The notes under the pieces were generated by a model. That model was not told the origin of the DNA. It saw nothing but the letters and a program-made list of their open reading frames with translations, and ran no database searches. A stretch of DNA of 64,000 bases, taken from NCBI GenBank assembly GCA_041856205.1, contig JBHAFS010000003.1, forward strand, positions 9,637 to 73,636. Direction: 5' to 3'. The translations under genes were made by a program, and so were the position numbers. Source of the DNA: Prevotella sp. (GTDB taxonomy: Bacteria; Bacteroidota; Bacteroidia; Bacteroidales; Bacteroidaceae). Shown here piece by piece: positions 5,717-40,706 of the stretch; the first letter of the stretch is position 1, and every line of letters starts with the position of its first letter.

Positions 5717-8641
5717 ATGAGGAAACGTTGTTTGGCGTCTGCCCATGCCATAATAAGAAATTGGGTTTGTCTATTGGCTGTCGGCTTGACAAGTGTCATG
5801 GCCTTCGGACAGTCACGGCTGAACGCCCTGGTCAACCATTATACGGTGGATCAGGGGCTGCCACATCATATCGTCAACTGTTCGCTTGAGACCAAGGATG
5901 GCTTTGAGTGGTTTGGCACCTGGTATGGGCTGGCACGCTTTGACGGATTCACCTTTCGCACCATCTCTGCGCCCTATCTCTTTGCTTCCGACCCCGCCCC
6001 GCGCAAGGTGGAGACCTTGGTGGAAGACTCCTGTGGCAATATCTGGGTCAAGACGCTCGACTGGAAACTGTCGGTATTGTTCAAGCAACAGGTGAGGTAC
6101 AAGAGCGTGTTCGACGAACTCAAACGTTTTTCGCGCAACCTGCAGGTCATCAAGATTCAGGGCGACGGAAAGGGCGGGGTGTTGTTGCTTACCAAGGACA
6201 AGAATCTTCTGCTGGCGTCTACCGACCACAGCGGTGCAGTACATATCAGGCTGTTGGTAGATGCCCGCGCCTATGTCAACCGTTACAACTATCGTCTCTC
6301 CAGACCTGTTGTGCAGCTGCGTAACGGGCGGGCCAGCTATGTGGGTACCGACTACCAGATTTACTCAGAACCGCTCAAGGGCGGAGTGGCACGCTCGGTG
6401 GCGGCCTGGCAACGTTATTTCGCTGAGAAAGCAGCCCGGGCCAATGTCTTCACAGATGGTTTGGGTTGTGAATGGACGGCCAGCAACGATGCAAGGCTTG
6501 GGTACTACAATCCCAAGACGGGACAGCGCAAGACAATACCGCTCACCTTCAAAGGCAAGATCGTGGAGCCGTCGTTCTATGATATAGGTGTCAATGGTAT
6601 CTATTACCTCTCACCGGCCGGTGAAGCGGTTCACATCGACAGGAGCAGCCTGACGGCCGAGAACATCGGAAGGCAGCCACAGCTGGCCGATGCACATCCC
6701 GATACGCGCTACCTCAGTATGCGGCAGAGCAGCGACGGCTCACTCTGGCTAACCTCGGCCAGCAGTGGTGTCTACCGGTTGAGCTTCCTGCCCCGCCAGT
6801 TCAAGGTGATTCCCCTGCCCGTGATGGGGGGCGACGGCATCAGGGGCATGTACCAGTTTGACAATGGTGACGTATGGGTGGGCTCACGCAACAAGACGCT
6901 GTATGTGCTCTCGGCAGACGGCAAGGTGAAGGGTACCTACCCCTACGACCGTTACGGCATTGGCAGTGTGTATCATATCATGGTAGACCACAAGGGTCGC
7001 ATTTGGCTATCGACCAAGGGCGACGGGTTGGTCATGGCCGTACGCGAGGCCAAGGCGGCAGGCGGTTATCGGTTTGTCCATTTCCGGCACGATGCTGCCG
7101 ACCTCTCCTCGATCAGCGGTAACGATGTCTATATGACCTATGAAGACAGCCGGCATCGCATCTGGGTGTGTACCATGGACGGCGGACTCAACCTCATGGA
7201 AGAGCGGGGTGGGCACACCGTCTTCTGGCATAAGTATCACGGCATGACCCATTATCCTGCCTTTGGTCTCTACATGGAGGTGCGCAACATGGTGGAAGAC
7301 AACCGCGGGCGCATCTGGGTGGGGACGATAGACGGCCTGATGTCGTTTCCCAGCCGTTTCAACAAGGCTTCGGACATCACCTTTGAGACCTATAAGAAGA
7401 CCGACGTGCTGACACTGGCCAACAGCGACATCTATGGACTGCACAAAGACCGCAAGGGACACATCTGGGTGTGCGCCTTCGGTGGAGGCGTCAATCGCAT
7501 CATCGGCTATGATGCACAAAGCCATCGTCCGCTGTTTCGTGAGCTCGGCGATAGCCGCACCCTGCGGGGCAAGGTCATCACCATCTTGCAGGAGGATGCC
7601 AGAGGCACCCTGTGGATGGGCAATGACCAAGGAGTGTCGGCTTGTCGGGCCGACGGTCAGATGGCGACCTTCGACCATTACGACGGATTTCCCGATGTAG
7701 AGATGGAGGAGGCATCGTCGATCAGCAATCGCAATGGTGAGCTGTGGATGGGCTGTCGGCAAGGCATCCTGGCTTTCAGGCCCAATCGTCTCAAATCGTC
7801 AGACACCAACAGTCCGGTATATATCGTTAGCGCCACGGTCAACAACCAGAGCATCAACAGTTTCAAGCATCCCATCATCAGCAAGTCGATCACCTATGCC
7901 GACACGCTGGTGCTGCGCCACAACCAGTCGATGTTCACACTTGAATTTGCGGCACCCGGCTGTCGCAACCAGAGCCATGTGGTCTATCGTTACCGGCTCG
8001 AGGGTTACGATGCCGACTGGCATTACAGCAGCACCAATCGCATTGCATCATATACGCAGGTGCCGCCCGGCAAATATTTGTTTGTGGTCGAGGCGGGCAG
8101 TGCCTCGAATCCCCTTGTTGCAAGCAGTCGCAAGGTAACTGTCATCATTCTGCCACCATGGTGGGCCACGTGGTGGGCACGCACCATCTATGTCCTGCTG
8201 TTTGGTCTGGCCTTGTATTTGGCAGTGCGATATGCCCGTTATCAGCTCAAACTGAAGAACGATATCTATATCCAGAGCCGCATTGCCGCCTTCAAGAAAT
8301 CGTTTTACATGGAGCAACAGGACCAGCAGTTTATGGAACGCGCCAAGCAGGTGGTGGAGCGCAATCTCACCAATGCCGACTTCGATATCGACCTCTTTGC
8401 CGAGCAGATGGGCATGAGTCACAGTGCCTTCTTCAAGCGCATCAAGCAGCTCACTGGTGGCTCTCCCTCAGATTTTATCAAAGAGTTCAAACTCAGCCAT
8501 GCCCTCGAACTGCTCAAGAGCACCGGCTTGAGTGTGGGTGATGTGGCCTATAAGTCGGGTTTCAGCGATGCCGGCTATTTTGGCAAGTGCTTCCGCAAGA
8601 AGTATGGCATGAGTCCTCGTGAGTACCAGCGGAACCAGTGA
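5717..8641 (+). CDS. Membrane-spanning AraC regulator: HTCS-type beta-propeller/Y_Y_Y sensor fused directly to an AraC HTH (no kinase or receiver domain)
   Basis: Repeated D..G.IW.GT propeller motifs, YRYRLEGYD Y_Y_Y motif, PPWWATWW plus TM helix, then AraC (VAYKSGFSDAGYFGKCFRKKYGMSP); no SHELRTPL, HATPase or REC motifs. Confidence 0.85.
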   Translation: MRKRCLASAHAIIRNWVCLLAVGLTSVMAFGQSRLNALVNHYTVDQGLPHHIVNCSLETKDGFEWFGTWYGLARFDGFTFRTISAPYLFASDPAPRKVETLVEDSCGNIWVKTLDWKLSVLFKQQVRYKSVFDELKRFSRNLQVIKIQGDGKGGVLLLTKDKNLLLASTDHSGAVHIRLLVDARAYVNRYNYRLSRPVVQLRNGRASYVGTDYQIYSEPLKGGVARSVAAWQRYFAEKAARANVFTDGLGCEWTASNDARLGYYNPKTGQRKTIPLTFKGKIVEPSFYDIGVNGIYYLSPAGEAVHIDRSSLTAENIGRQPQLADAHPDTRYLSMRQSSDGSLWLTSASSGVYRLSFLPRQFKVIPLPVMGGDGIRGMYQFDNGDVWVGSRNKTLYVLSADGKVKGTYPYDRYGIGSVYHIMVDHKGRIWLSTKGDGLVMAVREAKAAGGYRFVHFRHDAADLSSISGNDVYMTYEDSRHRIWVCTMDGGLNLMEERGGHTVFWHKYHGMTHYPAFGLYMEVRNMVEDNRGRIWVGTIDGLMSFPSRFNKASDITFETYKKTDVLTLANSDIYGLHKDRKGHIWVCAFGGGVNRIIGYDAQSHRPLFRELGDSRTLRGKVITILQEDARGTLWMGNDQGVSACRADGQMATFDHYDGFPDVEMEEASSISNRNGELWMGCRQGILAFRPNRLKSSDTNSPVYIVSATVNNQSINSFKHPIISKSITYADTLVLRHNQSMFTLEFAAPGCRNQSHVVYRYRLEGYDADWHYSSTNRIASYTQVPPGKYLFVVEAGSASNPLVASSRKVTVIILPPWWATWWARTIYVLLFGLALYLAVRYARYQLKLKNDIYIQSRIAAFKKSFYMEQQDQQFMERAKQVVERNLTNADFDIDLFAEQMGMSHSAFFKRIKQLTGGSPSDFIKEFKLSHALELLKSTGLSVGDVAYKSGFSDAGYFGKCFRKKYGMSPREYQRNQ

Positions 8642-8714
8642 GTTGGTTTGTTGGGGGGTAAGGAATGTTGTGAGGATACGATTTATATTTTTTTTATTTA
8701 TTTTTCATTTAAGT

Positions 8715-8742
8715 GGGTACACCGATAGTGTTTCTTCGTCTT
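8715..8742 (+). promoter_or_regulatory. Putative ECF sigma promoter GGGTAC-N16-CGTCTT
   Basis: Same bipartite motif and 16-nt spacing found at three other pectin-gene 5' ends. Confidence 0.6.
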
Positions 8743-8788
8743 ATGGGTAGCTTAATCTACAAAAGAGTCCCCAAACGATGTACCTCAA

Positions 8789-9667
8789 ATGAAAGAAAAC
8801 CTAACGTTGACATTGTTTCTGGCCTTATTGCTCTTACCTTGGCTGCCTGTGCAGTCGAAGGGCCGTCAGCAGTACCGGGTGGCTGCCTGCGACTGGATGA
8901 TGCTCAAGCGGCAGAAGTTGGGTGAATTTGCTCTTGCACGGCAGATCGGTGCCGATGGCGTGGAGCTTGACATGGGTCCCCTAGGCAGGCGGGAACTGTT
9001 TGACAACAACCTTCGTAACCAGAACGTAGCACGACAATTTCGCCAAACAGCAGACAGTCTCGCTGTTGCAGTGCCGTCGGTGGCCATGTCGGGTTTCTTT
9101 GCCCAGAATCTTTTCAGACGCTCCAACTACAAGGACTTGGTGCTCGACTGTCTGGCCACCATGCAGGTCTTTGGCAGCAGCGTTGCCTTTCTGCCCTTGG
9201 GGGGCAGTGGCCAGGAGTGGCTTCGAAAGGGAGCACAGCGCGACAGCATGGTGGCGGTGCTGCACGAATTGGGAGAGCTTGCGCGGGTCCATGGTGTGCG
9301 GATCGGTATTCGAACAGGGCAGGATGCGCGGTTTGACAAGCGTCTGCTTAAAGACATTGGTTCCTCTGGAGTGGGAATCTACTATAACTTCCAGGATGCG
9401 GCCGACGCAGGTCGTGATATTTGCAAGGAACTGAAGCGTCTTGGCAAGAACCGCATCGTACAGATCCATGCCAGCAATACCGACAGCGTGAACCTTCCCG
9501 AGGACAAGGAGATAGACCTGCCCGCCATCAAGCGCACGCTCGACGGCATGGGATGGAGCGGGTGGCTCGTTGTGGAACGGTCGCGAGATGCCAGTAGGGT
9601 GAGAGACGTCTCTTACAACTTCGGACGAAATGTGGCCTATTTGAAAAAGATATTTCAAAACCAATAA
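8789..9667 (+). CDS. Sugar phosphate isomerase/epimerase family (xylose isomerase-like TIM barrel) with signal peptide
   Basis: GADGVELDMG, YYNFQD, QIHAS, GWSGWLVVER motifs; hydrophobic N-terminus. Confidence 0.75.
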   Translation: MKENLTLTLFLALLLLPWLPVQSKGRQQYRVAACDWMMLKRQKLGEFALARQIGADGVELDMGPLGRRELFDNNLRNQNVARQFRQTADSLAVAVPSVAMSGFFAQNLFRRSNYKDLVLDCLATMQVFGSSVAFLPLGGSGQEWLRKGAQRDSMVAVLHELGELARVHGVRIGIRTGQDARFDKRLLKDIGSSGVGIYYNFQDAADAGRDICKELKRLGKNRIVQIHASNTDSVNLPEDKEIDLPAIKRTLDGMGWSGWLVVERSRDASRVRDVSYNFGRNVAYLKKIFQNQ

Positions 9668-9734
9668 GCCAATAAATCAATAAAACAATAAAAGAAAGAA
9701 ACAAATATTAAGTCAAACGAAAAAACTAGGAACT

Positions 9735-11234
9735 ATGAAACAAACTTATCTGACGATGCTACGCTCTTGGACCAAGGTGGTCCTGGCAGTGGCGGTAGCG
9801 ACGATGATGGGAGCGTGTGCCGTCGATGGTTTCGATGCCGACGAGCGGTTCACCTCGGATGTCACCGGTCAGACACTGGCTTCTCCTGTTGCCGATTCCA
9901 TTACCTTCACAGCCAATGCCGATGGTAGCAAGACTATCATCAAATGGCCGTTGGTCTACGGAGGGTGGGGATTCCTGTGCTCAGTGTATGATGTCTCTGA
10001 TGAGGCTAATCCTGTGGCCATCGTGGCAGACAGCATCATTGACGGTTACTCCATGGTGGTGAGTCGTACCGAGGACACCAACTACGAGTTGCATATCAAG
10101 ACTTTGGGCAATGCGAAGCTCAACAACACCGATGCTACAGAGACGACGGTGGTAGCCTTCAACTCCTTTACTCCGGCATGGAAGACTGTGCCCGACGGCA
10201 CCGACCTGTATGCCTGGCTGCAGGAGAATCCTGTTCCAGAAACCTCAGACGACATTGCCATCGACCTTGTGGAGGGCGGTCACTACACCCTCTCGTCGAG
10301 TGTCGACTTCTTGGGTACGCCCGTCACCCTGCGTACAGCCAGCAAGAAAAACCGGGCCACCATCACCATGGGTGCCAATGCCAGCTTACAGACCTACAAT
10401 GGTCTCACCCTTAAAAACCTGGTGTTCGACTGTTCACAGAGCACCGACCCGCTTATCCTGTTGAGCGCCACACCCTCTGAGAGCATCAAGAACCTGAAGG
10501 CTACGGCCGGATACTACTATATCACCAAGTCGATGGTCATCACCAACTGTCTCATCGACAACCTGGGTGACGAGGTGCTCGACAACAACAAGGTGCAATA
10601 TTGCATCGAGAACTTCCTGGTCGACAACAGCGTGTTCCATTTCAATACGGCTTCAACCATGTCGAGCTCCACCTATTTCAACATGTATAACAGCGGCGGA
10701 TGTATCAACAGTTTCACGGCACGCAGTTCGACGTTCTACAACACCAGTGCGTCGCAGATGAAATATTTCATCCGCTACAACAACAGCGGTAGTCCTAAGC
10801 GTACAGGTTACTCGGATGCCTCGGTCAATCTACAGCAGTGCACCTTCTGGAATATCGTGCCAGGCAACCAGATCTGCAACTACGATGGCTTGAGGAACTC
10901 AAATATGGTGACCTTTACCCTCGACCGCAACATCATCGCCAACACGGGCAGCAAGCAGTTTGTGCGTCGCTACATTGCCGGTGGTACATGGAGCGGGGCT
11001 GGCATCAAGAATTTCAGCCAGAACACCTATGTGTTTGATGGTGCCGATGCCTGGACCATGCCCGACTTGGCCACCCCCACCACCTGGACTGGTGAGGCCT
11101 CCTACGATCAGTCGGGAACCATCCTCAGCGGTGATCCTGGCTTCAAGGACGCTGCCAATGGCGATTTCACCGTGACTGGATCAGCACAGCTGAATGCACG
11201 TAGCGGCGACCCCAGGTGGTTGCCTGAACAATAA
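9735..11234 (+). CDS. Surface lipoprotein, putative glycan-binding protein (DUF4992/DUF4957/DUF5123-like)
   Basis: Lipobox MGAC; beta-helix-like Asn-rich repeats; ends DPGFKDAANGDFT..GDPRWL; immediately upstream of susC. Confidence 0.7.
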   Translation: MKQTYLTMLRSWTKVVLAVAVATMMGACAVDGFDADERFTSDVTGQTLASPVADSITFTANADGSKTIIKWPLVYGGWGFLCSVYDVSDEANPVAIVADSIIDGYSMVVSRTEDTNYELHIKTLGNAKLNNTDATETTVVAFNSFTPAWKTVPDGTDLYAWLQENPVPETSDDIAIDLVEGGHYTLSSSVDFLGTPVTLRTASKKNRATITMGANASLQTYNGLTLKNLVFDCSQSTDPLILLSATPSESIKNLKATAGYYYITKSMVITNCLIDNLGDEVLDNNKVQYCIENFLVDNSVFHFNTASTMSSSTYFNMYNSGGCINSFTARSSTFYNTSASQMKYFIRYNNSGSPKRTGYSDASVNLQQCTFWNIVPGNQICNYDGLRNSNMVTFTLDRNIIANTGSKQFVRRYIAGGTWSGAGIKNFSQNTYVFDGADAWTMPDLATPTTWTGEASYDQSGTILSGDPGFKDAANGDFTVTGSAQLNARSGDPRWLPEQ

Positions 11235-11260
11235 TGAAGTAACCCCAAATGAATCACATC

Positions 11261-14200
11261 ATGAAGAAACAAATATTCAAGATGCTGGCCGCAGGCATGA
11301 CACTGGCTGTTGCTCTGCCGGCTATGGCACAAAATAACAAGACCGTAACCGGCACCGTCCTTGACGAGAATGGCGACCCTGTGATCGGCGCAACAGTCAG
11401 AGTGGCTGGCACCAAAGGGGGCACAGTGACCGACCTCAATGGCCATTACAGCCTCCAGGCACCGGCAGGCAGCAACCTTACGGTGTCGTACATCGGCTAT
11501 CAGGACCTGACGACAAAAGGCGGACAAGTGAAGTTCTCTCCGTCGACCTCTACCGACCTCAATGAAGTGGTGGTGGTGGGTTACGGCGCGCAGAAGAAGG
11601 CGCACCTCACCGGCTCGGTAGCCACCGTAGCCACTGACGATATCCAGGACCTCGTGTCAACGGGTCTGGCCAGTTCACTGTCGGGACTGGTCAACGGTCT
11701 GAGCGTAGCCGGCGGCGATGCCCGTCCGGGAACCAATGCCCGCCTGTATGTCCGCGACACCAACTCGCTGGGCGAGGTGGGTGTCACAGCACAGGAGCCG
11801 CTGTATGTCATCGACGGATATATCTATCCCAATGATATCAAAGTAGGCAACAGCACCCAGAACATGGGAGCCGAGGCCTTCAACAACCTCGACCCTGCCG
11901 AGGTAGAGAGCATCTCGGTGCTCAAAGATGCCAGTGCCGCCGTGTATGGTGCGCGAGCTGCCAACGGTGTGATTCTTGTCACCACCAAGCGAGGCAAACA
12001 GGGTGCGCCACGTATCAGTTATAGTGGCACCTTCGGATTCACCGATGAGGTGGCTCGCCCCAAGATGCTGAGTGCCTACGACTATGGTCGCCTGAGCAAT
12101 GCCGTGGTGGCAGCCGATCCCACCAATACCACGCTCAACCGTACGACGGCACTCTACCAGGCTGATGAACTGGAGGCCATGAAGAGCCTGAACTACGACT
12201 TGCTTGACAAATATTGGGAGACAGCCACTACACAGCGTCACAGCATCAACGTGAGTGGCGCCACAGACAAGGTGAACTATTTCGGTGGTATTGGCTATGT
12301 GGATCAGAACGGTAACCTCGGTAAACTTGACTATAACCGCTGGAACTATCGTGCAGGCTTTGACGTCAAGGTCAGCAAGTGGCTGAGTGCAAATATCAGC
12401 GTGAGTGGTGACTATGGCAAGAAAAACCAGCCGCTGCTCAAGATCGGCGGCACCAACACCGAGAAAGACTACGGCCTGCTGCTCACCCATCCGCGCTACA
12501 TCCCTGAGTCGATCGGCAACTACCCTTTGCTGAGCTATGGGCTGAGCAACCAGCAGAAGAACCAGAACCAGCTCTACTCCTTCGACGTGCTGCAGAACAA
12601 CGGCGACTATAAGCGCAACATGAACTCCAATCTCAACGTGCAGGGCTCGGTGAGCTACGACTTCGGATGGAGCAAGCTGCTCAATGGCCTGAAGCTGAGC
12701 TTCAGCTACAGCAAGAGCATCAACACCGACAAGGGCAACGAGTATGGCTCGTCTTATACCCTTTATAGCATGAACACGAGCTTCGGCAGCGGTGGTCATC
12801 TCTACACGCCTACTGCCGGGGAGAACTATGACGACTATGTATATGCCGGCAATTTCACGGCATTGAACATCAACAACGGCAACTATCTCTCGCGCACGTC
12901 TACCCGTACCGACAACTACCAGATGAACTTCACGGCGCAGTATGCCCGCAGTTTTGGATTGCACCACCTGCAGGCCCTGTTCTCTGTTGAGCGGAGCGAA
13001 GCCGAGAGCGAATACCAGACCACCCAGTGCGAGCAACCCTATGAGTTTACCACCGGTCAGTCCAACTCGGCCATGGGCGAGCTTTCGGGCGTGTTTACTC
13101 GCAGCGAGTCGGGCACGCTGTCGTATATCGGCAGGGTCAACTATGCCTACGGTGAGAAGTACCTGTTGGAGTTGCTGCTCCGCTCGGATGCCTCCACCAA
13201 GTTTGCCCCCAAGAACTATTGGGGCACCTTCCCGGCTCTGAGTGCGGGTTGGGTGATGAGCGAGGAGAAGTGGTTCCAGGAATCCCTGCCTTGGTGGAAC
13301 TTCCTGAAGCTGCGTGCCTCGTTCGGTCTGACGGGTCGCGACAACACCGCAGCCTGGCAGTGGATGCAGGTCTATGCACAGGATGCCAACAAGGGTGTGG
13401 TGTTCGGCGAAGGGTCGAGCAACGATTCCAGCAACCGTATCACCATCAACAAGAACAATTCGGCTGTCAATACCGATGTGCATTGGGATAAGGACTATAA
13501 GTTCAACTTTGGTATCGACTCCCATTTCCTCAACAGTCGTCTGTCGCTGACCTTTGATGCCTATCATGAGTGGAACCGCAACATGCTCATGAACATTGCC
13601 CAGACGGTGCCCTTCTCTGTAGGCACGCAGAGTGCTGCCGTCAACCAGGGCGAGCTCGACTCATGGGGCTATGAGCTCTCGCTCAGCTGGCGCGACAAAA
13701 TAGGTAAGGACTTCAAGTATCACGTAGGTCTCAACACCGGCTATTCGGACAATGCCGTGCTCAACATGGACTGGGAGACCGAGTATGCTTACCGCCAGAT
13801 TGTCTACAAGGGCCGTACCGACATCGGCACCTGGGGCATGCAGTGCATCGGTATGTTCCGCAGCTTCCAGGATATCGAGGAGTATTTCGATAAGTACCAC
13901 ATCACCTCTTACATGGGCCTCACCAAGGACAAGGTGCGCCCCGGTATGCTGATCTACAAGGACGTGCGCGGTGCCCAGCACACTGATGCCAACGGTAATA
14001 TTTACTACGACGGCCCCGATGGCATCGTCGACCAGGACAACGACCAGGTGGAGCTCTCGCATCGCGGCAATATCTATGGCTTCACCATCAATGGCGGTGC
14101 CGAATGGAAGGGTATTGGCCTCACGTTCCAGTTCAATGCCAACTGGGGCGGCTACACCACCCTGCCCAGCCAGGCCCTGCAGCCTTATGCTGCCGGCAAT

Positions 14201-14605
14201 GCCAACCTCGAGTATGCCAACATGCCTTCGTTCTGGAATCCCGACAACATGTTTGTCTACCAGGATATAGTCGATGGTTCGGGTAATGTAGTGATGAAGG
14301 CCAACCGCGCGGCCCTGCTGCCCAACCTTGCCTATGCCAGCATCAATAGTGTGGCCTCCAGCTTCTGGCGCATCAGCGATGCCCAGGTGACCCTCGGCCG
14401 TGTGACCCTGGCCTACACCTTGCCTAAAAACTGGCTCACCAGTCTGGGTATCGGCATACAGAGCGCGCGTGTCAACGTCACCGGTATCAACCTCATTAGC
14501 TTCTACAATCCGTATCCTGACCACTTTACCAATCCCGTGGCAGGTACCTATGGTAGCTATCCCAACCTGCGCAAGTGGACTATCGGCGTGAACCTCACCT
14601 TCTAA
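11261..14605 (+). CDS. susC: SusC/RagA TonB-dependent transporter (pectin PUL)
   Basis: VVVVGYG, plug motif LKDASAAVYGARAANGVILVTTKRG, C-terminal GVNLTF; alternative start at 11249. Confidence 0.95.
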   Translation: MKKQIFKMLAAGMTLAVALPAMAQNNKTVTGTVLDENGDPVIGATVRVAGTKGGTVTDLNGHYSLQAPAGSNLTVSYIGYQDLTTKGGQVKFSPSTSTDLNEVVVVGYGAQKKAHLTGSVATVATDDIQDLVSTGLASSLSGLVNGLSVAGGDARPGTNARLYVRDTNSLGEVGVTAQEPLYVIDGYIYPNDIKVGNSTQNMGAEAFNNLDPAEVESISVLKDASAAVYGARAANGVILVTTKRGKQGAPRISYSGTFGFTDEVARPKMLSAYDYGRLSNAVVAADPTNTTLNRTTALYQADELEAMKSLNYDLLDKYWETATTQRHSINVSGATDKVNYFGGIGYVDQNGNLGKLDYNRWNYRAGFDVKVSKWLSANISVSGDYGKKNQPLLKIGGTNTEKDYGLLLTHPRYIPESIGNYPLLSYGLSNQQKNQNQLYSFDVLQNNGDYKRNMNSNLNVQGSVSYDFGWSKLLNGLKLSFSYSKSINTDKGNEYGSSYTLYSMNTSFGSGGHLYTPTAGENYDDYVYAGNFTALNINNGNYLSRTSTRTDNYQMNFTAQYARSFGLHHLQALFSVERSEAESEYQTTQCEQPYEFTTGQSNSAMGELSGVFTRSESGTLSYIGRVNYAYGEKYLLELLLRSDASTKFAPKNYWGTFPALSAGWVMSEEKWFQESLPWWNFLKLRASFGLTGRDNTAAWQWMQVYAQDANKGVVFGEGSSNDSSNRITINKNNSAVNTDVHWDKDYKFNFGIDSHFLNSRLSLTFDAYHEWNRNMLMNIAQTVPFSVGTQSAAVNQGELDSWGYELSLSWRDKIGKDFKYHVGLNTGYSDNAVLNMDWETEYAYRQIVYKGRTDIGTWGMQCIGMFRSFQDIEEYFDKYHITSYMGLTKDKVRPGMLIYKDVRGAQHTDANGNIYYDGPDGIVDQDNDQVELSHRGNIYGFTINGGAEWKGIGLTFQFNANWGGYTTLPSQALQPYAAGNANLEYANMPSFWNPDNMFVYQDIVDGSGNVVMKANRAALLPNLAYASINSVASSFWRISDAQVTLGRVTLAYTLPKNWLTSLGIGIQSARVNVTGINLISFYNPYPDHFTNPVAGTYGSYPNLRKWTIGVNLTF

Positions 14606-14623
14606 CCTCATAACGACAAAACA

Positions 14624-16807
14624 ATGAAAACAACATTGAGATATATCAGTCTGGGCCTGGGAGCCTTGCTGACACTGGCCTCGTGCAGCGACGAGTTTCT
14701 GCAGGAGAAAAAGAACTACGATAATGTGAACTCCGATATATACAACTATTATAGCGGATGCAACGGTCGTCTGAATGATATCTACAGCTGGTGTCTGCCC
14801 ACGACCAACGATATGACCTGGAAGTATCCTTCCATGGGTAACAATGACCTGGCAGGTGGCTCGACCGAAGAGTACAGCGGCTTCAGCAACTTTGTCAACC
14901 CCGACATCGAACTGTCGTCGACCGGTTCCACCAATGCTGTGCCCGACTTCATCATGGGCACCCAGACCAACATCCAGGAGGCTGTCTATGGCCGCATCCG
15001 TAACATCAATGATGTCATTGCCGGCATCAGCGGTGGTACCTTGTCGGACGAGGAGAAAAACACCCTGTTGGGACAGGTCTACTTCTTCCGCGCCTGGTGT
15101 TACTACAACCTGCTGAAGTGGTATGGGGGCGTGCCCATCGTCACCGAGACCAAGGACCCTGTTTCGGGTAATTCCACACCGCGCTCTTCTGCACGCGAGG
15201 TCAAGGACTTCATTCTCTCTGACCTCGACCGTGCCTCTTCGATGCTGGCCTCCAAGACCATGAACGGTGGCTGGAGTGGCACCGACTACGGTCGGGTGAC
15301 CAGTGGCACGGCTGTGGCCCTCAAGGGCCGTGTGCTGTTGCTGTGGGCCAGTCCGTTGTTCAACCGTGCCAACGAACAGAGCCGCTGGACCGAGGCCTAC
15401 CAGGCCATGAAGGCCGGCAAAGACACCATCGATGCCTGCGGCTACGGGCTCTATCAGTCGTCGGGTGCCAATGCTGCCGGCTTTGCCTCAATGTTCTGCC
15501 AGAACGGCAAGAACCCCGAGGCTGTGTTTGTGACCCTATACAACAACATCACTGGCGACGGTCTCGACAACCAGAAGAACAACCGCTGGGAGCGCGACAT
15601 CCGTCCGGCCAACACTGGCGGTGGAGGCAAGAACGCCTCGGCCATGCTCGTCGATATGTTCCCCATGGCCGATGGTAAGATACCGGCAGGCACAGGAACC
15701 TATACGAAGCTCCAGACTTCCGACTCTACCTATGCCAAGAGCACGCCGTTCCTGAACCGCGACCCGCGCTTCTATCGCACCTTCGCCTTCCCGGGCTTCC
15801 GCTGGGCCTACAACGGCGATGCCAGCCAGATCAACCCCAACAACCCCGGCCCCGGCAACAGCTATGTGCTGTGGAACTACGTGTGGTACACCGATGTCAA
15901 CGACCAGGGCAATGCCGAGAGCGGCAACTCGTATGGTGCCGACAACCTGCTCACCAGCAAGGCGGGTGTCTATGTGCGCAAGAAGAGTGACGATGCTGAT
16001 GTCAACAGTCCGCTCTACACCTATGTGGCAGGCGATGTGAAGGGTGCTGCCCCGTTCTATTCGGCCGCCCCGCTTATCGAGTTGCGTTATGCCGAGGTGT
16101 TGCTCAACCTGGCCGAGGTGGCCTGTGGCGCCAATCGTCTCGATGAGGCTGTGGGCTACCTGCAGCAGATCCGTGCCCGTGTGGGTTATACGGCAGCCAA
16201 CAACTACGGCTTGCAAGCCAACCTCACCGCCGACCAGGCGGCCTGCATGAGCGCCATTCTCTATGAGCGTCAGGTGGAGTTTGCCTACGAGGGCAAACGC
16301 TTCGACGACATGCGTCGCTGGTTGCTCTACGACGGTGGCACGCAGTTTGCCTCGATCTCGGGCTGTCCTGACACCTGGAAGCTCACCGGATGGGGTGGCA
16401 ACACCTGCAACTGGCTTGGCTTCACACCGTTCAACGGTCAGCGCCGTGAGAACATGGAATTCCGTGTGGCCGACAAGTACGGTGTGGGCGGCACTTCATA
16501 CGACAGTGACCCCTTGCTCAAGAATGGCGGCACGCGGACAACGACCGTCGACCTGCGCAAAGACCTCACCACCCAGCTGCCCCAGCTGGCTGCCTGGTAT
16601 GCCGACAACCTCGTGCGCAAAGACAAGAAGGGCGACGCACGCGACTCGCAGCACAACGACGAATATATCAATTTCCGACCCAACTACTATTTCCTGGGCC
16701 TGAGCTCCGGAGCCTCGGCAGCCGACAAGAGTCTGCCGCAGACCATTGGCTGGCAAGATTACAACCAGGGTGGTGCCATGGGTACGTTTGACCCTCTGGC
16801 CGAATAA
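14624..16807 (+). CDS. susD: SusD/RagB lipoprotein
   Basis: Lipobox LASC; GQVYFFRAW, RYAEVLLNLAE, ERQVEFAYEGKRFDDMRRW. Confidence 0.95.
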   Translation: MKTTLRYISLGLGALLTLASCSDEFLQEKKNYDNVNSDIYNYYSGCNGRLNDIYSWCLPTTNDMTWKYPSMGNNDLAGGSTEEYSGFSNFVNPDIELSSTGSTNAVPDFIMGTQTNIQEAVYGRIRNINDVIAGISGGTLSDEEKNTLLGQVYFFRAWCYYNLLKWYGGVPIVTETKDPVSGNSTPRSSAREVKDFILSDLDRASSMLASKTMNGGWSGTDYGRVTSGTAVALKGRVLLLWASPLFNRANEQSRWTEAYQAMKAGKDTIDACGYGLYQSSGANAAGFASMFCQNGKNPEAVFVTLYNNITGDGLDNQKNNRWERDIRPANTGGGGKNASAMLVDMFPMADGKIPAGTGTYTKLQTSDSTYAKSTPFLNRDPRFYRTFAFPGFRWAYNGDASQINPNNPGPGNSYVLWNYVWYTDVNDQGNAESGNSYGADNLLTSKAGVYVRKKSDDADVNSPLYTYVAGDVKGAAPFYSAAPLIELRYAEVLLNLAEVACGANRLDEAVGYLQQIRARVGYTAANNYGLQANLTADQAACMSAILYERQVEFAYEGKRFDDMRRWLLYDGGTQFASISGCPDTWKLTGWGGNTCNWLGFTPFNGQRRENMEFRVADKYGVGGTSYDSDPLLKNGGTRTTTVDLRKDLTTQLPQLAAWYADNLVRKDKKGDARDSQHNDEYINFRPNYYFLGLSSGASAADKSLPQTIGWQDYNQGGAMGTFDPLAE

Positions 16808-18398: not shown

Positions 18399-18438
18399 CA
18401 AATCATTACAGTATTATTATAGACAGATGATACATCAA

Positions 18439-23941: not shown

Positions 23942-23969
23942 GAGTGCAAAACGGGTCATAGGCCGTCTT
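23942..23969 (+). promoter_or_regulatory. Putative ECF sigma promoter GAGTGC-N16-CGTCTT
   Basis: Matches the shared motif; 35 nt upstream of ATG 24005. Confidence 0.55.
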
Positions 23970-25750: not shown

Positions 25751-25790
25751 TAGGTGGTGACAGAGACAGAATAACGTTATATAGCAATAT

Positions 25791-29300: not shown

Positions 29301-29413
29301 AGGTCGATGCCAAGACGGGCGCCGTCACACGAATTGCCTCGAAACTGTCTCCTGCCCGGGTCATGACGGCTCTGACAGACCACGGCATCTATTGGCTGAG
29401 GGCACAAAACTAA
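26390..29413 (+). CDS. Beta-helix plus DUF6298-like secreted protein (putative pectin-active enzyme)
   Basis: IQQALD..GAVLLAPGTY..SGVVLRG beta-helix start; QNYGLWYDRRRDDH and HYFQHNILEAGAHW motifs. Confidence 0.65.
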   Translation: MKHIIAALWVMLGVVRVAAQPFPLDYSEVGYHHSERQIPDAPVKVYVSWRMGDQSSRIQQALDAVARMRPDKTTGLRGAVLLAPGTYHLSRALHIAASGVVLRGTGRKETVLLKDGVDRGAVVYVEGRDDRCLTDTLSVAGDVALGAATVTVDAQPGWLQAGAEVVVSRPSTKQWIARMGCSTFGGGDELGYWGWHPGEIDVEWTRTVTAVKGHRLTLDSPLSMALREADGKSRVMRCVWPGRIHDAGVENLTIASAYDERYPMDEDHAWDGVYVSNAKDCWVRQVNFLHLAGSAVVVQRSASQVTVEDCVSRQPVSELGGYRRRTFLTYGERCLFQRLWSEEGINDFAAGMVAAGPNAFVQCESHRSHGFSGAVGPWATGLLFDCVTVDGHDIRLGYIGLEKYGTGWNTANSTAYQCSAAGIQADSLPDGSANYAYGCWAQFTGNGRFAEANNHVRPWSLFAKQLSERLGRDVSALTRTLERGSDAATSPTIEQARQLTLEAHRPRVTMAMWVDSARFTASVSPRGAIDVDRFYREPPVAPPLPEIGLERGKLVMDHALLTGRRHNAPWWNGRVRYSDFDKRGYALTRFVPGMEQNATTDRVDSVVSWMVRTHQLLFSQNYGLWYDRRRDDHERVRRRDGDVWPPFYEQAFARSGQGTAWDGLSLYDLERLNPWYFDRLRAFARAGAPHGLLLMNQHYFQHNILEAGAHWVDCPWRSANNTNDTDFPEPVPFTGDKRIFMADRFYDVAHSVRRALYKQYIMKVLDAFADCPNVIQSIGEEFTGPLAFVQFWLDTIKEWEQTRGHHVLVALGVNKDVQDAILADPQRRDVVDIINIEQWFYNDKGQYAPPGGVNMAPRQYQRQIKTGSATFADVYKAVLEYRAGYPDKAVVYYAQKYPELAWAVFMAGGSCPAIPVTDTAFLQSAATMLPTWHQDGCYVMQGDNGDAVVWHEGGSLTGALQLGAASYALFKVDAKTGAVTRIASKLSPARVMTALTDHGIYWLRAQN

Positions 29414-29431: not shown

Positions 29432-29459
29432 GAGGACTGCATCCCTGTCTGTTCGTCTT
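29432..29459 (+). promoter_or_regulatory. Putative ECF sigma promoter GAGGAC-N16-CGTCTT
   Basis: Shares TTCGTCTTATGG 12-mer with the site at 8735-8746; upstream of the mini anti-sigma/sigma pair. Confidence 0.6.
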
Positions 29460-29519: not shown

Positions 29520-29771
29520 ATGACCCCCAATGTGATAGATCTCCTGAAAGACCCCGTATTTCTCAGAAGCGTCTTGGATGCCATGCCAGGGCAGACGTCG
29601 CTGTGTTTTTCTTCGGATATCCATCCGTCTTCGCAGGAAATCGTCGAGGCCGAGCACATTTTGCTCACTTTGAGCGATGCGTCATGCCAGATACCCAAAG
29701 AAGAGATAGAAGAGTTGAAAAACCGTATAAAAAGCCTTGTGATGGCCGAAAATGGGATAAAAAACAACTGA
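29520..29771 (+). CDS. Small soluble protein resembling the cytoplasmic N-terminal domain of Bacteroidetes FecR-type anti-sigma factors
   Basis: DLLKDPVFLRSVL..HP...EIVEAEHIL..L...IPKEEIEELKNRI pattern; stop codon where the TM helix would be; adjacent to ECF sigma. Confidence 0.6.
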   Translation: MTPNVIDLLKDPVFLRSVLDAMPGQTSLCFSSDIHPSSQEIVEAEHILLTLSDASCQIPKEEIEELKNRIKSLVMAENGIKNN

Positions 29772-29830
29772 TTTACCTATTTTTACCAGTTTTATATCTA
29801 TTATTACAGAAGAATTGAGTGTCATTTGGG

Positions 29831-29838
29831 TATCTTTG
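29831..29838 (+). promoter_or_regulatory. Bacteroidetes primary-sigma -7 element TATCTTTG for the ECF sigma gene
   Basis: TAnnTTTG consensus about 30 nt upstream of ATG 29870. Confidence 0.6.
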
Positions 29839-29869: not shown

Positions 29870-30430
29870 ATGACAAACTCTACTTTTGACAAGGACGACC
29901 AAGCCCTCCAGCTTTTGGATGCTTATGCCCAAGGTGATGCCTCTGCATTATCCACCCTTTATGATATGTATATTCAGCTGATGTTGAATTACGGTTGTTG
30001 TCTCACATCAGACGTCGAACTGGTCAAGGATTGTGTCCAGGATGTATTCGTGCGGCTGATGGACAAGGACCATGCGCCTCAGGTGAAGCGTATGAGTGCC
30101 TACCTGGTCATATCGTTGCGCAACCGACTGGTTGACGAGTTCCGCAAGGGCACCTATTTCACCGATACACCTATTGCCAATGCGGCGCGAAATCAGCTGA
30201 CAGAAGACGCGGAAAGCACCTACCTGGATGCTGAGAAGACACAGTACCAGTCGCACCTCGTGAGTCGGCTGATGGGCTGTCTCACTCCCCGCCAGCGCCA
30301 GGCCTTCCAGTTGTATTACATCGAAGAGAAGAAATACGACGAGATATGTAAGATCATGGACATGAACTACCACTCTGTGCGCAACCTGGTTCATCGCGGC
30401 ATGCTCAAGTTGCGGGCGGCTGCCCTGTAG
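29870..30430 (+). CDS. ECF (sigma-70 family) RNA polymerase sigma factor
   Basis: Region 2 LYDMY..LMLNYG..VKDCVQDVFVRL; region 4 LTPRQRQAFQLYY..YDEICKIM..SVRNLVHRG. Confidence 0.92.
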   Translation: MTNSTFDKDDQALQLLDAYAQGDASALSTLYDMYIQLMLNYGCCLTSDVELVKDCVQDVFVRLMDKDHAPQVKRMSAYLVISLRNRLVDEFRKGTYFTDTPIANAARNQLTEDAESTYLDAEKTQYQSHLVSRLMGCLTPRQRQAFQLYYIEEKKYDEICKIMDMNYHSVRNLVHRGMLKLRAAAL

Positions 30431-30483: not shown

Positions 30484-32751
30484 ATGAAACATCTGTTGTC
30501 ATTGTTCCTCCTCATTGGCTGCGCCCTGTCGGTTTGTGGCTCTCCTGCCGATGTGGTGTGGCATGAGCAGAGCGGCAATTCCTCTGGGTCGATGCCTTGC
30601 GGTGGCGGGAGCATCGGGATGAACGTGTGGGTGGAGGATGGCGACATCCTGTTCTACCTGGCGCGCAGTGGCTGCTTCGACGAGAACAACACCTTGCTCA
30701 AGGCCGGGCGGTTTCGCATCAGCCTCACGCCCAAGTTGCGCTCGGGCAAGGACTTCAGCCAGCGACTCGTTGTCAAAGACGGTCACTGCGTCATCAGCGA
30801 TGGCACGAGGCAGGTGGTGATCTGGGCCGATGTCTACAAGCCTGTGGTGCATGTCGATGTCAGTATGGACCATGCAGAGCCCTTGACCTGCATCTATGAG
30901 AACTGGCGCTACCGCGACCGTGCCATTGCCCGGCAGGAGAGTTTCCAGACCTCGTATAAGTTCAGGATTCCGCGGGGTTGTGTCACCCATCGCGACCGTT
31001 TTTCCGCCACCGACGGCGAGATGCTCTTCTACCATCACAATGCCGACAGCACGGTCTTCGACGCCACGGCCCACCAGCAAGGGCTGGGCAGCTATATCCC
31101 GCAGATGTACAATCCGCTGGGTGGCCTGGTCTTTGGCGGCCGCCTCGTCGTCCCTGGCTTCACCTACGACGGCACTGTCGATAGCACCTACCAACATACC
31201 GACTACCGAGGCTGGCGTTTCCGCTCGGCCAAGTCGTCACGCCGCTACAGCCTCTCCATCGTTCTGGCCAACCACCAGGGCACGGTAGACGAGTGGCGCG
31301 CCGTGGTAGACCGCACCTGGGCACAGGTGCGTCCTGCCGCCGATCGCAGGGCCACCCTGAAGTGGTGGCACTCCTGGTGGGAGCGCAGCTTCATCGAGGC
31401 CACAGGCGAAGGCTCGATGATGGCCCGCAACTACACGCTCTTCAGATATATGATGGGGTGCAACGCCCTCAGCCAGTGGCCCACGAAGTTTAATGGCGGC
31501 CTGTTTACCTTTGACCCTGTGACGGTCGATGCCCGCTACCCCTTCACGCCCGACTTCAGGCGGTGGGGTGGAGGCACCCACACGGCACAAAACCAGCGAC
31601 TGCTTTACTGGCCGCTGCTCAAGAGCGGCGACTACGATGCCCTGAAGAGCCAGCTCGACTTCTATGTGCGTATCCTCGGCAATGCCGAGTTGCGCAGCAG
31701 GGTCTATTGGAACCATGAGGGTGCGGCGTTCACCGAGCAACTCGAGAACTTCGGGTTGCCCGAGCATGACGAATACGGACTGAAGCGCCCCGAGGGCTTC
31801 GATCCCGGACTGGAATATAATGCCTGGCTTGAATATACCTGGGACACCGTGCTGGAGTTTTGCCAGATGGCGCTGGCGGCCGAACACTACGGCGGCATCG
31901 ACATCTCGGCCTACATCCCCTGGATACGGTCGTCGCTCGACTTCTTCGACGCCCACTACCGTATGCTGGCCCGGCAGCGCGGTGCCCGTCAGCTGGACGG
32001 CAACGGCAGGCTGGTGATCTATCCCGGCTCGGGGGCCGAGACATTCAAGATGGCCTACAACCCCACCTCCACGGCGGCCGGCCTGAGGGTCGTCACATCG
32101 GGTCTCATAGCACATCTCACCGCCCACGGTGCCGATACGGCCGTCATCGGCCGGTATCAGGCCATGCTGCGAACGTGGCCCGACCTCAGCTACCGCGAGG
32201 TGGACGGACACCACGTGCTGTCGCCTGCCGTGACGTGGGAGCGTGTCAACAATACCGAGCTGCCGATGCTCTATCCCATCTTTCCCTGGCGACTTTATGG
32301 CGTGGGGCGCGACAGCCTCGACGTGGCCCTCGATACCTGGCGTCACGACCCCTATGTGCAGCGTTTCAACGGCATCGTGAGCTGGGAGCAGGCGGGCATA
32401 TGGGCCGCCTGCCTCGGACTGACCGAGGAGGCTGTGGCGTGGAACAGCAAGAAGCTGGCCGACGGTCCCTACCGCTTTCCTGCCTTCTGGGGGCCGGGAC
32501 ACGACTGGACACCCGACCACAACTGGGGTGGGAGTGGGATGATTGGTCTGCAAGAGATGCTCATGCAGGAGGCTGGCGACAGCATACTGCTCTTTCCGGC
32601 GTGGCCCAGGCAATGGGACGTACACTTCAGGCTGCACGGTGCCAACGGGAAGGTCATCGAGGCCCGGCTCAAGGGTGGAAAGGCCGAAATCGTAGCCGGC
32701 GAGCGATGCCGGCTGGCGTGGGAGCCGAAAGGTGGGGTCAGGCGGGATTGA
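30484..32751 (+). CDS. DUF5703 / GH95-like (alpha/alpha)6 glycosidase-fold secreted protein
   Basis: SMPCGGGSIGMNVWVE, LFRYM..PTKFNGGLFT, PDHNWGG..LQEMLMQ..LLFPAWP motifs. Confidence 0.65.
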   Translation: MKHLLSLFLLIGCALSVCGSPADVVWHEQSGNSSGSMPCGGGSIGMNVWVEDGDILFYLARSGCFDENNTLLKAGRFRISLTPKLRSGKDFSQRLVVKDGHCVISDGTRQVVIWADVYKPVVHVDVSMDHAEPLTCIYENWRYRDRAIARQESFQTSYKFRIPRGCVTHRDRFSATDGEMLFYHHNADSTVFDATAHQQGLGSYIPQMYNPLGGLVFGGRLVVPGFTYDGTVDSTYQHTDYRGWRFRSAKSSRRYSLSIVLANHQGTVDEWRAVVDRTWAQVRPAADRRATLKWWHSWWERSFIEATGEGSMMARNYTLFRYMMGCNALSQWPTKFNGGLFTFDPVTVDARYPFTPDFRRWGGGTHTAQNQRLLYWPLLKSGDYDALKSQLDFYVRILGNAELRSRVYWNHEGAAFTEQLENFGLPEHDEYGLKRPEGFDPGLEYNAWLEYTWDTVLEFCQMALAAEHYGGIDISAYIPWIRSSLDFFDAHYRMLARQRGARQLDGNGRLVIYPGSGAETFKMAYNPTSTAAGLRVVTSGLIAHLTAHGADTAVIGRYQAMLRTWPDLSYREVDGHHVLSPAVTWERVNNTELPMLYPIFPWRLYGVGRDSLDVALDTWRHDPYVQRFNGIVSWEQAGIWAACLGLTEEAVAWNSKKLADGPYRFPAFWGPGHDWTPDHNWGGSGMIGLQEMLMQEAGDSILLFPAWPRQWDVHFRLHGANGKVIEARLKGGKAEIVAGERCRLAWEPKGGVRRD

Positions 32752-39075: not shown

Positions 39076-40642
39076 TCACGGCGCAGCCTGGGGCAGCACG
39101 TTGAGCCATCGTCCCAGTTCGGGTGGTTGGTTGTAGGCTACGTTCTCGGCGGCCACGCCGGCACGGTAGGGCGGGTCTTGCATGAGGCAGGTGGCGCGGT
39201 AGGGCGTGGGGAGGACGGTGACATAGATGCGCAGCTCGGTGCTCTCCTCGTTGCGTATGATTACCTCCTCGCGCCAGTCGCCCAGGATGTCGGCCGAGAG
39301 ACAGGGATTCGACTTGGAACCGCTGTTGAAGCGGCCCTCGAACTGTTGCACGAGGTCGATGTTGCCCGTCGTCCAGTTGTACTTGGTCACGGCCTCGTGG
39401 TCGAGCAGTTCGCGTAGCGTGTCGCCGTCCCACCAGATGGCGAAGTTGCAGCTCAGCCGCTGTCTGCCCCGGTGCGTGTCGCTATAGTCGGTATAGGGGG
39501 AGGGCAGGTTGTCTTCGCCTTCTCCTTGTTTTGTCGTCGCCTCGGGCCTGAGCCCGTTGCCTTGGCTGTCGAGCAGTCTGCCGGTGTTGGCGCTCCATAG
39601 CTCAAAGCCCTCGTGGGTGGGGTCGATGTCGGCGGCCAGGGCACGTCCCACGTCGTAGTCGGCCTTCTTCTGCAACACCAGCGCACCGGTGGCGGCGTCG
39701 CGCAGCGTGGAGCCGTCGCGGCGGTTCTCGTGGCAGTCCCAGACGAGCAGTCGTCCGGTGTGCGGCTCCACCCCGAGGTGGAGGGCGTCGCCGTGGCCGA
39801 ACCCGGTGTTGTGGAGCCCGCTGCCGTCGTGGTCGACACACATCGCGCCATAGACGATCTCATCGCATCCGTCGCCGTCGACATCGGCCACGCGCAGGTT
39901 GTGGTTGCCTTGCCCGGCATAGTCGGGCTGGGCACGGTTGCTCAGTCCCAGCTGCTGCATGAGCCGTGTTTGCTCGGGCTGAGGGTGGGTATCGAAATAC
40001 CAGTGCAACTTCAGGTCTTTGCCATCCCAGTCCCATGCCGCCAGCGTGGTGCGGGTGTAGTAGCCCCGGCAGAACACGGCGCTGGGATGCCGACCGTCGA
40101 GATAGGCCAGGGCCGCCAGATAGCGCTCCGAGCGGTTGGCATGGTCGTCGCCCCAGCAGTTCTGCGGACCGCGGTCGGGCACATAGTCGACCGTCTTCAG
40201 GGCGCGTCCTGTGCGGCCTTCAAACACGGTGAGGTATTCGGGACCGTCCATGATACGCCCCTGCCGGGCACCTTCGGTTTGTATGCGCCAGTCGCGTGTG
40301 GCATCGCTGATGGCCCGTCCCGTGCCGTCGATGGTGCCGTCGGCCGTCTTCATCATGAGTTCGGCACGTCCGTCGCCGTCAAAGTCGTAGACGAGGAACT
40401 GCGTGTAATGGGCCCCGGCCCTGATGTTGCGCCCCATGTCGATGTGCCAGAGCCGGGTGCCGTCGAGATCTTTGCCGTAGCATACGCCACGACACCACCA
40501 CCCGGTGGCCAGACCTGATGGCCACCACGCCGCGGTCGAGCCGTTCGGTCTGCATCACGCTGAAGTCGTATTTGGGCTGCGCGCTCGCCACATGGGGCAT
40601 GGCCAGGAGCAACAACAGCAGTTTGAAAGGTCTGAGTTTCAT
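39076..40642 (-). pseudogene. Rhamnogalacturonan lyase (PL11, YesW/YesX-like) with internal deletion and frameshift near 40470-40480
   Basis: N-terminus ERLDRGVVA..VSWRML in one frame; LDGTRLWHIDMGRNIRAGAHY, RGYYTR, GQGNH, GHGDALH, YNQPP in another. Confidence 0.8.
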
Positions 40643-40678
40643 GTTTTAGTTGAAATAGTTACACCTTGTTTGATATAT

Positions 40679-40706
40679 AGGACGGGCAAGGTTTTAATCT
40701 GTCCGC
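40679..40706 (-). promoter_or_regulatory. Putative ECF sigma promoter GCGGAC-N16-CGTCCT
   Basis: Minus-strand match 36 nt upstream of the PL11 start. Confidence 0.55.

Follow-up and report, generated by a model that had tools for sequence, protein, structure and literature searches.

Layout of the locus

Control of polysaccharide utilization loci (PULs) in Bacteroidota is taught as one of three schemes, namely a hybrid two-component system (HTCS), a SusR-like regulator, or signalling from the STN domain of SusC through an anti-sigma factor to an extracytoplasmic function (ECF) sigma factor. Here we describe a stretch of 64,000 nucleotides from a Prevotella sp. genome (assembly GCA_041856205.1, contig JBHAFS010000003.1), G+C-rich and of Prevotellaceae lineage, which we refer to as the window. 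It carries a PUL together with an ECF sigma factor, a soluble homologue of the sigma-binding head of FecR (mini-FecR), four ECF-type promoter sites and a membrane-bound regulator with an AraC-type DNA-binding domain. An earlier note, made from the sequence of the window alone, had read these elements as a candidate stripped-down regulatory circuit for pectin genes headed by the AraC-type regulator.

The PUL operon (8789..16807, + strand) begins with a gene for an exported, xylose-isomerase-like TIM-barrel protein (8789-9667), followed by those for a DUF4992/DUF4957/DUF5123 surface protein (9735-11234), SusC (11249-14605) and SusD (14624-16807), all assigned by Pfam. This gene order is syntenic with that of Segatella bryantii DSM 11371, the nearest named relative found, and of G229, the closest relative genome compared. 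The second operon on the + strand (24005..29413) encodes a pectate-lyase-like protein (24005-25750; Pfam, and PDB 9buj, 'Pectate lyase', E 1e-40), a DUF3826 protein (25791-26393) and, as its last gene product, a DUF6298 protein (26390-29413). Next come the genes for mini-FecR (29520..29771, +), the sigma factor (29870..30430, +) and, directly 3' of the latter, a DUF5703 protein (30484..32751, +; Pfam, and PDB 9hyq, E 4e-263), whereas a PL11 rhamnogalacturonan lyase (39076..40645, start codon 40642; Pfam RGL11_C) lies on the opposite strand. The AraC-type regulator gene (5717..8641, +) precedes the PUL, and before it lies a five-gene operon on one strand, identified by Pfam and open reading frame (ORF) analysis, for GH2, GH2, GH106 alpha-L-rhamnosidase, SASA-type esterase and GH2 proteins (window positions 2-5673 and upstream; G000:C3:1507-15309). 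The map also includes further GH2 enzymes. The locus is a PUL by virtue of its adjacent SusC and SusD genes and its glycan-active enzymes (PL11, GH2, pectate-lyase-like, GH106 and esterase), and the presence of GH106, SASA esterase, GH2, PL11 and pectate-lyase-like proteins points to rhamnogalacturonan-I/pectin as the probable substrate.

The SusC protein consists of a signal peptide followed by a CarbopepD_reg domain (residues 33-109) and a Plug domain (118-241). No STN domain was detected in it by Pfam, and the arrangement leaves no space for one.

The sigma factor and its own promoter

The sigma factor is a protein of 186 aa (ATG at 29870) with Pfam matches to Sigma70_r2 and Sigma70_r4_2, which on a 203-aa frame cover residues 47-110 and 148-200 (Sigma70_r4_2/r4), respectively. 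With regions 2 and 4 only, it belongs to the ECF (group 4) sigma factors. No paralogue was found in its own genome by tblastn. Of the 301 genomes of the genus, 29 encode an orthologue, and 34 loci containing a sigma orthologue, at 47–81% identity (69% in S. bryantii), were used in the comparisons that follow.

In the classical ECF layout an autoregulated sigma factor is co-transcribed with its anti-sigma factor, and this is not the layout found here. The sequence TATCTTTG (29831..29838, +), a Bacteroidota housekeeping-type -7 box, lies 31 nt before the sigma ATG, and TAnnTTTG occurs 30-45 nt 5' of the sigma ATG in 33 of the 34 loci, while the ECF motif described below is absent upstream of the sigma gene in all 34. 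Between the mini-FecR gene and this promoter there is a terminator-like inverted repeat with a T-run (29753..29795, +). Upstream of sigma in most of the related loci (about 30), a repeat of the GGGAAAAAT...ATTTTTCCC type with a T-run is again present, T-tracts phased at about 11 bp following the inverted repeat upstream of the -7 box, and in many loci the inverted repeat is conserved in sequence as well as in structure. It could be a terminator that insulates the sigma gene, or an operator. A sigma factor that is apparently not autoregulated, next to a partner gene that appears to be sigma-dependent, would be unusual for an ECF system.

A FecR head encoded by its own gene

The mini-FecR protein is 83 aa long and soluble, with no transmembrane (TM) segment and no periplasmic domains. 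Small ORFs beside the sigma orthologues of related genomes align with it and share conserved residues L9, F14, A44, L48, L51 and R69; across 31 of the 34 loci the length of the family stays within 76-98 aa. In all of these 31 loci the mini-FecR gene adjoins the sigma gene and shares its strand, upstream of it in 16 and downstream in 15. Two clades of loci have opposite gene orders (L004, L013 and L041-L050 versus the window and L009-L012), and the ECF promoter stays with the mini-FecR gene in either. This pairing suggests that the mini-FecR protein binds the sigma factor.

Several comparisons connect the family to FecR. In hhalign, the mini-FecR family was placed on residues 9-79 of a full-length FecR+FecR_C protein (E 6.6e-6) that has a TM helix and whose gene follows that of a 32%-identical sigma factor in a more distant Bacteroidales genome. 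Searching 1.84 billion representatives with a mini-FecR profile gave 205 matches, mostly stand-alone proteins of 80-90 aa, and stand-alone proteins of this type and size make up more than 100 of the clusters formed at 50% identity. All eight of the long matches tested (333-412 aa) are FecR+FecR_C proteins that match the profile at residues 1-82, which corresponds to the N-terminal sigma-binding head of FecR. The same profile run against 250 Bacteroidales genomes matched the N-termini of frames of 343-433 aa, and among these genomes stand-alone heads were found only in the host genome, one further genus of its family and a single genome from a different family. The ORF in the window has a polar tail and stops at residue 83, so that the single TM helix of FecR is missing, as are the periplasmic domains (PF04773, PF16344). 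Judged by these matches, the mini-FecR gene descends from a FecR gene by truncation and is conserved chiefly within Prevotellaceae.

Pfam returned nothing meaningful for nine mini-FecR proteins at E-values up to 10, including for FecR (PF04773) and FecR_C (PF16344), and a sequence search of the PDB with a 71-sequence mini-FecR profile yielded chance matches only. Only one FecR-domain gene is present in the host genome, which is 89% complete; it is on another contig beside a different sigma factor, and tblastn detected no similarity between that sigma factor and the one in the window. Elsewhere, protein P0182 (609 aa, FecR+FecR_C) contains four tandem mini-like heads and P0186 (173 aa) contains two, which suggests that the head domain can be multiplied.

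ECF-type promoter sites

The pattern GnGKRC-N16-CGTCYT was first fitted post hoc to the sites in the window, and its conservation in relatives is therefore the real test. The window contains exactly four matches versus 0.34 expected: GGGTAC-N16-CGTCTT (site 1; 8715..8742, +), 46 nt 5' of the first PUL gene; GAGTGC-N16-CGTCTT (site 2; 23942..23969, +), 35 nt 5' of position 24005; GAGGAC-N16-CGTCTT (site 3; 29432..29459, +), 60 nt 5' of the mini-FecR gene; and GCGGAC-N16-CGTCCT (site 4; 40679..40706, -), 36 nt 5' of the PL11 start codon at 40642. Each is thus 35-60 nt from a start codon and in the correct orientation. The genome-wide count of 17 matches in 3.19 Mb is at chance level; four of the five intergenic matches fall inside one 32-kb stretch of the window, and the others are nearly all in coding sequence.

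In S. bryantii, three of the four sites are found at orthologous positions, upstream of the TIM-barrel, pectate-lyase-like and mini-FecR genes, in intergenic sequence that has otherwise diverged; the counterpart of site 2, which is also present in G229, reads GGTTAC-N16-CGTCTT. G229 retains all four, with spacers that differ, site 4 there being GCAGAC-N16-CGTCCT. The position of site 1 is occupied in S. bryantii, G229, G036, G182, G218 and G199, and more generally the motif is found 36-100 nt from the start of the TIM-barrel gene in 22 of 23 close orthologues. Of the 23 genomes with these TIM-barrel orthologues, 21 carry the sigma factor, the remaining two being 84% and 62% complete. The ECF-type consensus is G[AG]T[GT]ACA-N15-CGTCTT. 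Upstream of the mini-FecR gene, G[AG]T[GT]ACA-N15-CGTC[TC]T occurs at a distance of 13-60 nt in 19 of 31 loci, with both gene orders represented, and even in L012, where an unrelated phosphatase gene lies upstream. In the remainder of these loci the relaxed pattern has a background of 0.005 per 160 nt, which makes it more than 100-fold enriched upstream of the mini-FecR gene.

Such conservation against a diverged background marks the motif as the likely footprint of a promoter. As it travels with the sigma/mini-FecR pair, we infer that the sigma factor of the window reads it. The possibility that the motif is an AraC operator was rejected, as it persists in genomes that have no AraC-type regulator. 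With a score matrix built from the relatives' sites only, without those of the window, the best matches in the genome (18-26 bits; C128:202, C72:20598 and C26:16872, loci L063-L065) lie 24-72 nt upstream of genes for an OmdA-domain protein, a DHDPS-family enzyme and a GH95 protein. These may be further members of the regulon or targets of another sigma factor.

A membrane regulator derived from a hybrid two-component system

The AraC-type regulator (974 aa) was characterized using Pfam, hydropathy and alignment to HTCS proteins. It has Reg_prop and Y_Y_Y sensor domains and an HTH_18/HTH_AraC DNA-binding domain at residues 895-972, with an N-terminal hydrophobic signal or anchor segment and a TM segment at about 815-837. 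Pfam gave no match to HisKA, HATPase or Response_reg in this protein. When compared by BLASTP with a full HTCS of 1466 aa (P0059), residues 36-864 correspond to 43-956 and residues 864-970 to 1354-1460, so that about 397 residues of the HTCS (957-1353, comprising HisKA, HATPase and the receiver domain, REC) are skipped; the aligned parts are 41-60% identical to full HTCSs. On this alignment, the regulator is an HTCS derivative from which the HisKA-HATPase-REC portion appears to have been cleanly lost, the juxtamembrane helix being fused straight to the AraC domain. This receiver-less architecture recurs in over 60 clusters, and one of their members, from Segatella buccae, is annotated 'AraC family transcriptional regulator'.

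The regulator therefore shares with the HTCSs of Bacteroidota PULs the periplasmic Reg_prop/Y_Y_Y sensor, the TM segment, the juxtamembrane helix, the AraC output domain and a gene position next to a PUL, but it differs from them in having no HisKA, HATPase or REC; it can therefore neither run a phosphorelay nor have its DNA-binding domain inhibited by REC. Functionally, we take it to resemble membrane-bound one-component regulators such as ToxR and CadC. According to one report (PMC11253607), in a full HTCS the REC domain keeps the DNA-binding domain off; because this brake is absent here, the gating of the regulator must differ from that of an HTCS.

Other features of the enzyme genes

The DUF5703 gene is also the neighbor of the sigma gene in S. 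bryantii and G229, not in G036 and G007, and in the host organism the two genes are probably co-transcribed. The PL11 gene is broken in the assembly by an internal deletion with a change of frame after about residue 57 and the loss of about 140 residues, and this disrupted copy, for which the intact 668-aa orthologue in G229 serves as reference, represents a pseudogene or else results from an assembly error. The region contains three big paralogues (21103-23949, -; 18157-20949, +; 24005-25750, +), two of them with bacterial TSP3 repeats, and the S. bryantii locus lacks a separate counterpart of the 930-aa copy among these pectate-lyase-like paralogues. In seven genomes (G298, G114, G134, G169, G019, G173 and G115), the match to the TIM-barrel protein contains one in-frame TGA.

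A model of the circuit and its alternatives

The structural observations of the earlier note have stood up well. It had described a propeller-TM-AraC regulator lacking phosphorelay domains, which agrees with the Pfam results and the two-block HTCS alignment; an 83-aa ORF for an anti-sigma domain only, ahead of an ECF sigma gene, now recognizable as a FecR head paired with sigma in 31 of 34 loci; a SusC without the STN signalling extension, in which CarbopepD_reg indeed leads directly to Plug; four sites, one of them upstream of the small ORF, all four of which were recovered and are conserved in relatives; and a TATCTTTG promoter at 29831 belonging to the sigma gene itself, where the box is present and its TAnnTTTG form is kept in all but one of the loci. 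Its statement that neither the HTCS nor the trans-envelope route is intact also holds at this locus, which has no kinase or REC, no STN and no periplasmic FecR. As for the proposal that the sigma factor drives both the pectin genes and an inhibitor, the conserved promoters, including that of the mini-FecR gene, speak for the regulatory connection, while the word inhibitor describes one of two possible signs.

Taken together, the domain content, the homology to FecR heads, the gene pairing and the motif conservation make it probable that this is a conserved Prevotella pectin PUL run by its own ECF sigma factor through ECF-type promoters, with a soluble, sigma-dependent FecR-head partner. The sigma factor encoded within the locus would transcribe its operons from G[AG]T[GT]ACA-N15-CGTCTT promoters, and very probably drives both the pectin genes and its own partner. 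Its gene would be expressed from the TAnnTTTG promoter behind the terminator-like hairpin, free of autoregulation. The predicted targets are the PUL (TIM-barrel protein, surface protein, SusC and SusD), the pectate-lyase-like/DUF3826/DUF6298 operon, PL11 and the mini-FecR gene, so that a binding partner induced by the sigma factor would close a feedback loop. We take the loop to be negative, with titration of the sigma factor by mini-FecR as the more probable sign and a positive, pro-sigma role as the less probable one. Because SusC has no STN domain and there is no periplasmic FecR domain, the substrate signal must enter elsewhere, and it could do so via synthesis of the sigma factor, via the stability or occupancy of the mini-FecR protein, or via the neighboring kinase-less AraC regulator.

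The last of these entry points is where we depart from the earlier note, which had the membrane AraC regulator sense a periplasmic pectin fragment and activate the sigma gene at TATCTTTG, the sigma factor then running the regulon and inducing its soluble inhibitor. We regard this circuit as unlikely. The regulator is, to be sure, the only sensor-like protein in the locus, and the separate non-ECF promoter of the sigma gene is a place where an activator could act. The AraC gene also lies 19-30 kb upstream of the sigma gene and is read in the same direction in S. bryantii, G229, G036, G218, G182 and G073, and 12 of the 13 AraC-positive genomes among the 301 of the genus have the sigma factor (the thirteenth is a 50%-complete metagenome-assembled genome) against a base rate of 29/301, a co-occurrence that carries limited weight because physical linkage in one island would give the same and because related genomes are not independent samples. 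AraC orthologues were found in only one of 35 sampled genera of the family. Against the proposed link, the regulator is absent from 17 of the 29 sigma-positive genomes, and its absence was upheld in the five of these that were re-checked with all candidates scored. One of the genomes (G070, 99% complete) has neither the regulator nor the PUL and has kept the DUF6298-mini-FecR-sigma group, and four others (G015, G176, G298 and G085) have kept the PUL with its ECF promoter in the absence of the regulator, this promoter being present whether or not an AraC gene precedes the PUL. No element upstream of the sigma gene tracks the presence of the regulator in the 34 loci, and the hairpin and phased T-tracts upstream of the -7 box look the same in loci with and without the AraC gene. 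A 'TTTACC' direct repeat ahead of the sigma gene, considered as a possible AraC site, was rejected, as it represents a hairpin arm and phased T-tracts that occur irrespective of AraC in these loci. Activation of the sigma gene by the membrane regulator is thus not borne out, and of the three-gene co-occurrence and synteny that the earlier note had named as a check, the sigma/mini-FecR part holds in 31 of 34 loci while synteny of the AraC gene is limited to a single subclade. At least as likely as an AraC-to-sigma step is control of the adjoining glycosidase operon by the regulator. That the regulator acts apart from the sigma factor altogether, controlling this glycosidase/esterase operon or co-activating the PUL promoter, with sigma and mini-FecR as a separate layer that has an input of its own, is an appreciable possibility, if short of an even chance. 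The AraC gene follows the GH2 stop codon by 44 nt, where a long same-strand operon ends, its adjacency to GH2 is kept in S. bryantii, HTCS-type regulators normally target adjacent genes, and the AraC-less PULs that keep their ECF promoter indicate that the regulator is not needed for that promoter type. On the other hand, upstream of the glycosidase operon neither an ECF motif nor a repeat motif was found and no AraC binding site was identified; moreover, without REC the AraC domain lacks the inhibitory contact described for HTCSs in the report cited above (PMC11253607), and ligand binding would have to gate it by other means.

Regarding the sign of the loop, inhibition is favored because it agrees with the behavior of FecR-type partners of Bacteroides PUL sigma factors, which reportedly, in work by Martens et al. 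from 2009, act as inhibitors, and because it avoids a start-up paradox: if mini-FecR expression needed the sigma factor and the sigma factor needed mini-FecR, starting the system would rest on leakage. The opposite sign, in which the mini-FecR protein is a pro-sigma factor that binds the sigma factor and enables or boosts its activity, its own ECF promoter then generating switch-like positive feedback, is the weaker option and somewhat doubtful. It gains from the observation that FecR1-85, FoxR1-93 and FiuR1-91 activate their cognate sigma factors without inducer (PMC9249621), fragments that the mini-FecR protein matches in size and extent (FecR residues 1-82), and from the formal equivalence of a stand-alone head with the end product of a proteolytic signalling cascade; it is weakened by the start-up problem, by the inhibitor behavior reported for Bacteroides and by three loci that have the sigma factor without a mini-FecR gene. 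Finally, one might suppose that there is no system at all, the small ORF being a decaying FecR remnant and the four sites a by-eye pattern in unrelated intergenic DNA. The pattern was post hoc, its genome-wide count of 17 is what chance would give and the mini-FecR protein diverges fast; yet the ORF is kept at 76-98 aa with conserved positions in 31 of 34 loci and has more than 100 stand-alone clusters, and the motif is enriched more than 100-fold upstream of the mini-FecR gene and present upstream of 22 of 23 TIM-barrel orthologues. With this degree of ORF and motif conservation, chance or a pseudogene is a highly improbable explanation and was rejected.

A number of observations weigh against the favored reading, in which the PUL is run by its own sigma factor with a sigma-dependent FecR-head partner. 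The host genome encodes about 15 other ECF-like sigma factors, and a different one of these could read the promoter motif. The four sites of the window score no higher than 13.5 bits with the relatives' matrix, whereas two other sites of the genome reach 24-26 bits. The motif is missing before the mini-FecR gene in 12 of the 31 loci, in eight of which the gene starts close behind that for DUF6298 (by about 28 nt in both L002 and L003) and presumably shares its transcript. No mini-FecR gene is found within 1.5 kb of the sigma gene in L030, L031 and L040, where DUF6298 is followed directly by the sigma promoter. Between the window and G229 (L067/L068), the mini-FecR protein shares just 46% identity, as compared to 80-95% for the proteins encoded by the flanking genes, and such fast divergence suggests weak or shifting constraint. 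The AlphaFold2 model of mini-FecR, which consists of four helices, is of moderate quality (pLDDT 75, pTM 0.49), and a Foldseek search with it against the PDB gave nothing at E 0.001 or better, so that the predicted fold adds no independent support. Lastly, a constitutive sigma factor combined with a sigma-induced inhibitor does not, by itself, account for induction by substrate.

Relation to known signalling systems

The closest known counterpart of the locus is the ECF240-type ECF/FecR/SusC-STN signalling of PULs, the prototype of which is FecA-FecR-FecI of E. coli, and with which it shares a sigma factor inside the PUL, a FecR-head partner and a SusC/SusD target. An ECF-type -35/-10 promoter (GAC-N16-CGTC) is likewise common to the locus and to Bacteroides ECF/FecR PULs. 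In contrast to the latter, the partner has no TM helix and no FecR or FecR_C domain, SusC has no STN domain and there is no visible route for a periplasmic signal; furthermore, the ECF promoter precedes the partner gene rather than the sigma gene, and the gene order is variable. The mini-FecR protein also invites comparison with isolated N-terminal fragments of FecR-type proteins, of which FecR1-85/1-59, FoxR1-93 and FiuR1-91 are pro-sigma, and either released by RseP or engineered, whereas FpvR1-67 is anti-sigma (PMC9249621). It comprises the same region, has a similar size, is soluble and would be expected to bind sigma region 4; unlike these engineered or proteolytic products, it is encoded by its own gene, forms a conserved family and has a predicted sigma-dependent promoter of its own. 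In a re-classification of ECF sigma factors, soluble anti-sigma factors occur in 10 groups and FecR-like partners as membrane proteins only (PMC7826278). Like those soluble anti-sigma factors, the mini-FecR protein is a predicted cytoplasmic sigma partner encoded beside the sigma gene, but they come from other domain lineages, many of them zinc-binding, whereas mini-FecR comes from that of FecR.

A description of a PUL with this sigma/mini-FecR arrangement was not found in the open-access literature, which is not proof of novelty. What appears to be new here is probable ECF/FecR control of a PUL without the trans-envelope part and with a defined promoter, together with a widespread receiver-less HTCS derivative. 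A more far-reaching idea, which we put forward only tentatively, is that control of the PUL has been rebuilt from two broken signalling systems, a self-contained feedback module, built on a beheaded FecR microprotein that its own sigma factor induces, having replaced trans-envelope signalling, with sensing by the kinase-less HTCS, as a membrane one-component regulator, or by a cytoplasmic cue that acts on mini-FecR. If this is true, the FecR head would be an autonomous, portable regulatory unit.

Implications

The locus fits none of the three taught schemes of PUL control and is conserved in about one in ten genomes sampled from a genus abundant in rumen and gut. It yields a definite promoter consensus for an ECF sigma factor that is linked to a PUL, and the syntenic locus in S. 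bryantii DSM 11371 is that of a cultured organism. The promoter motif opens the way to the prediction of pectin regulons in Prevotella genomes and metagenome-assembled genomes. A natural stand-alone FecR head bears on the question of pro-sigma versus anti-sigma function, with the three loci that have the sigma factor without it (L030, L031 and L040) as natural controls for what it does. The widespread receiver-less HTCS derivative, for its part, should bind DNA independently of phosphorylation.

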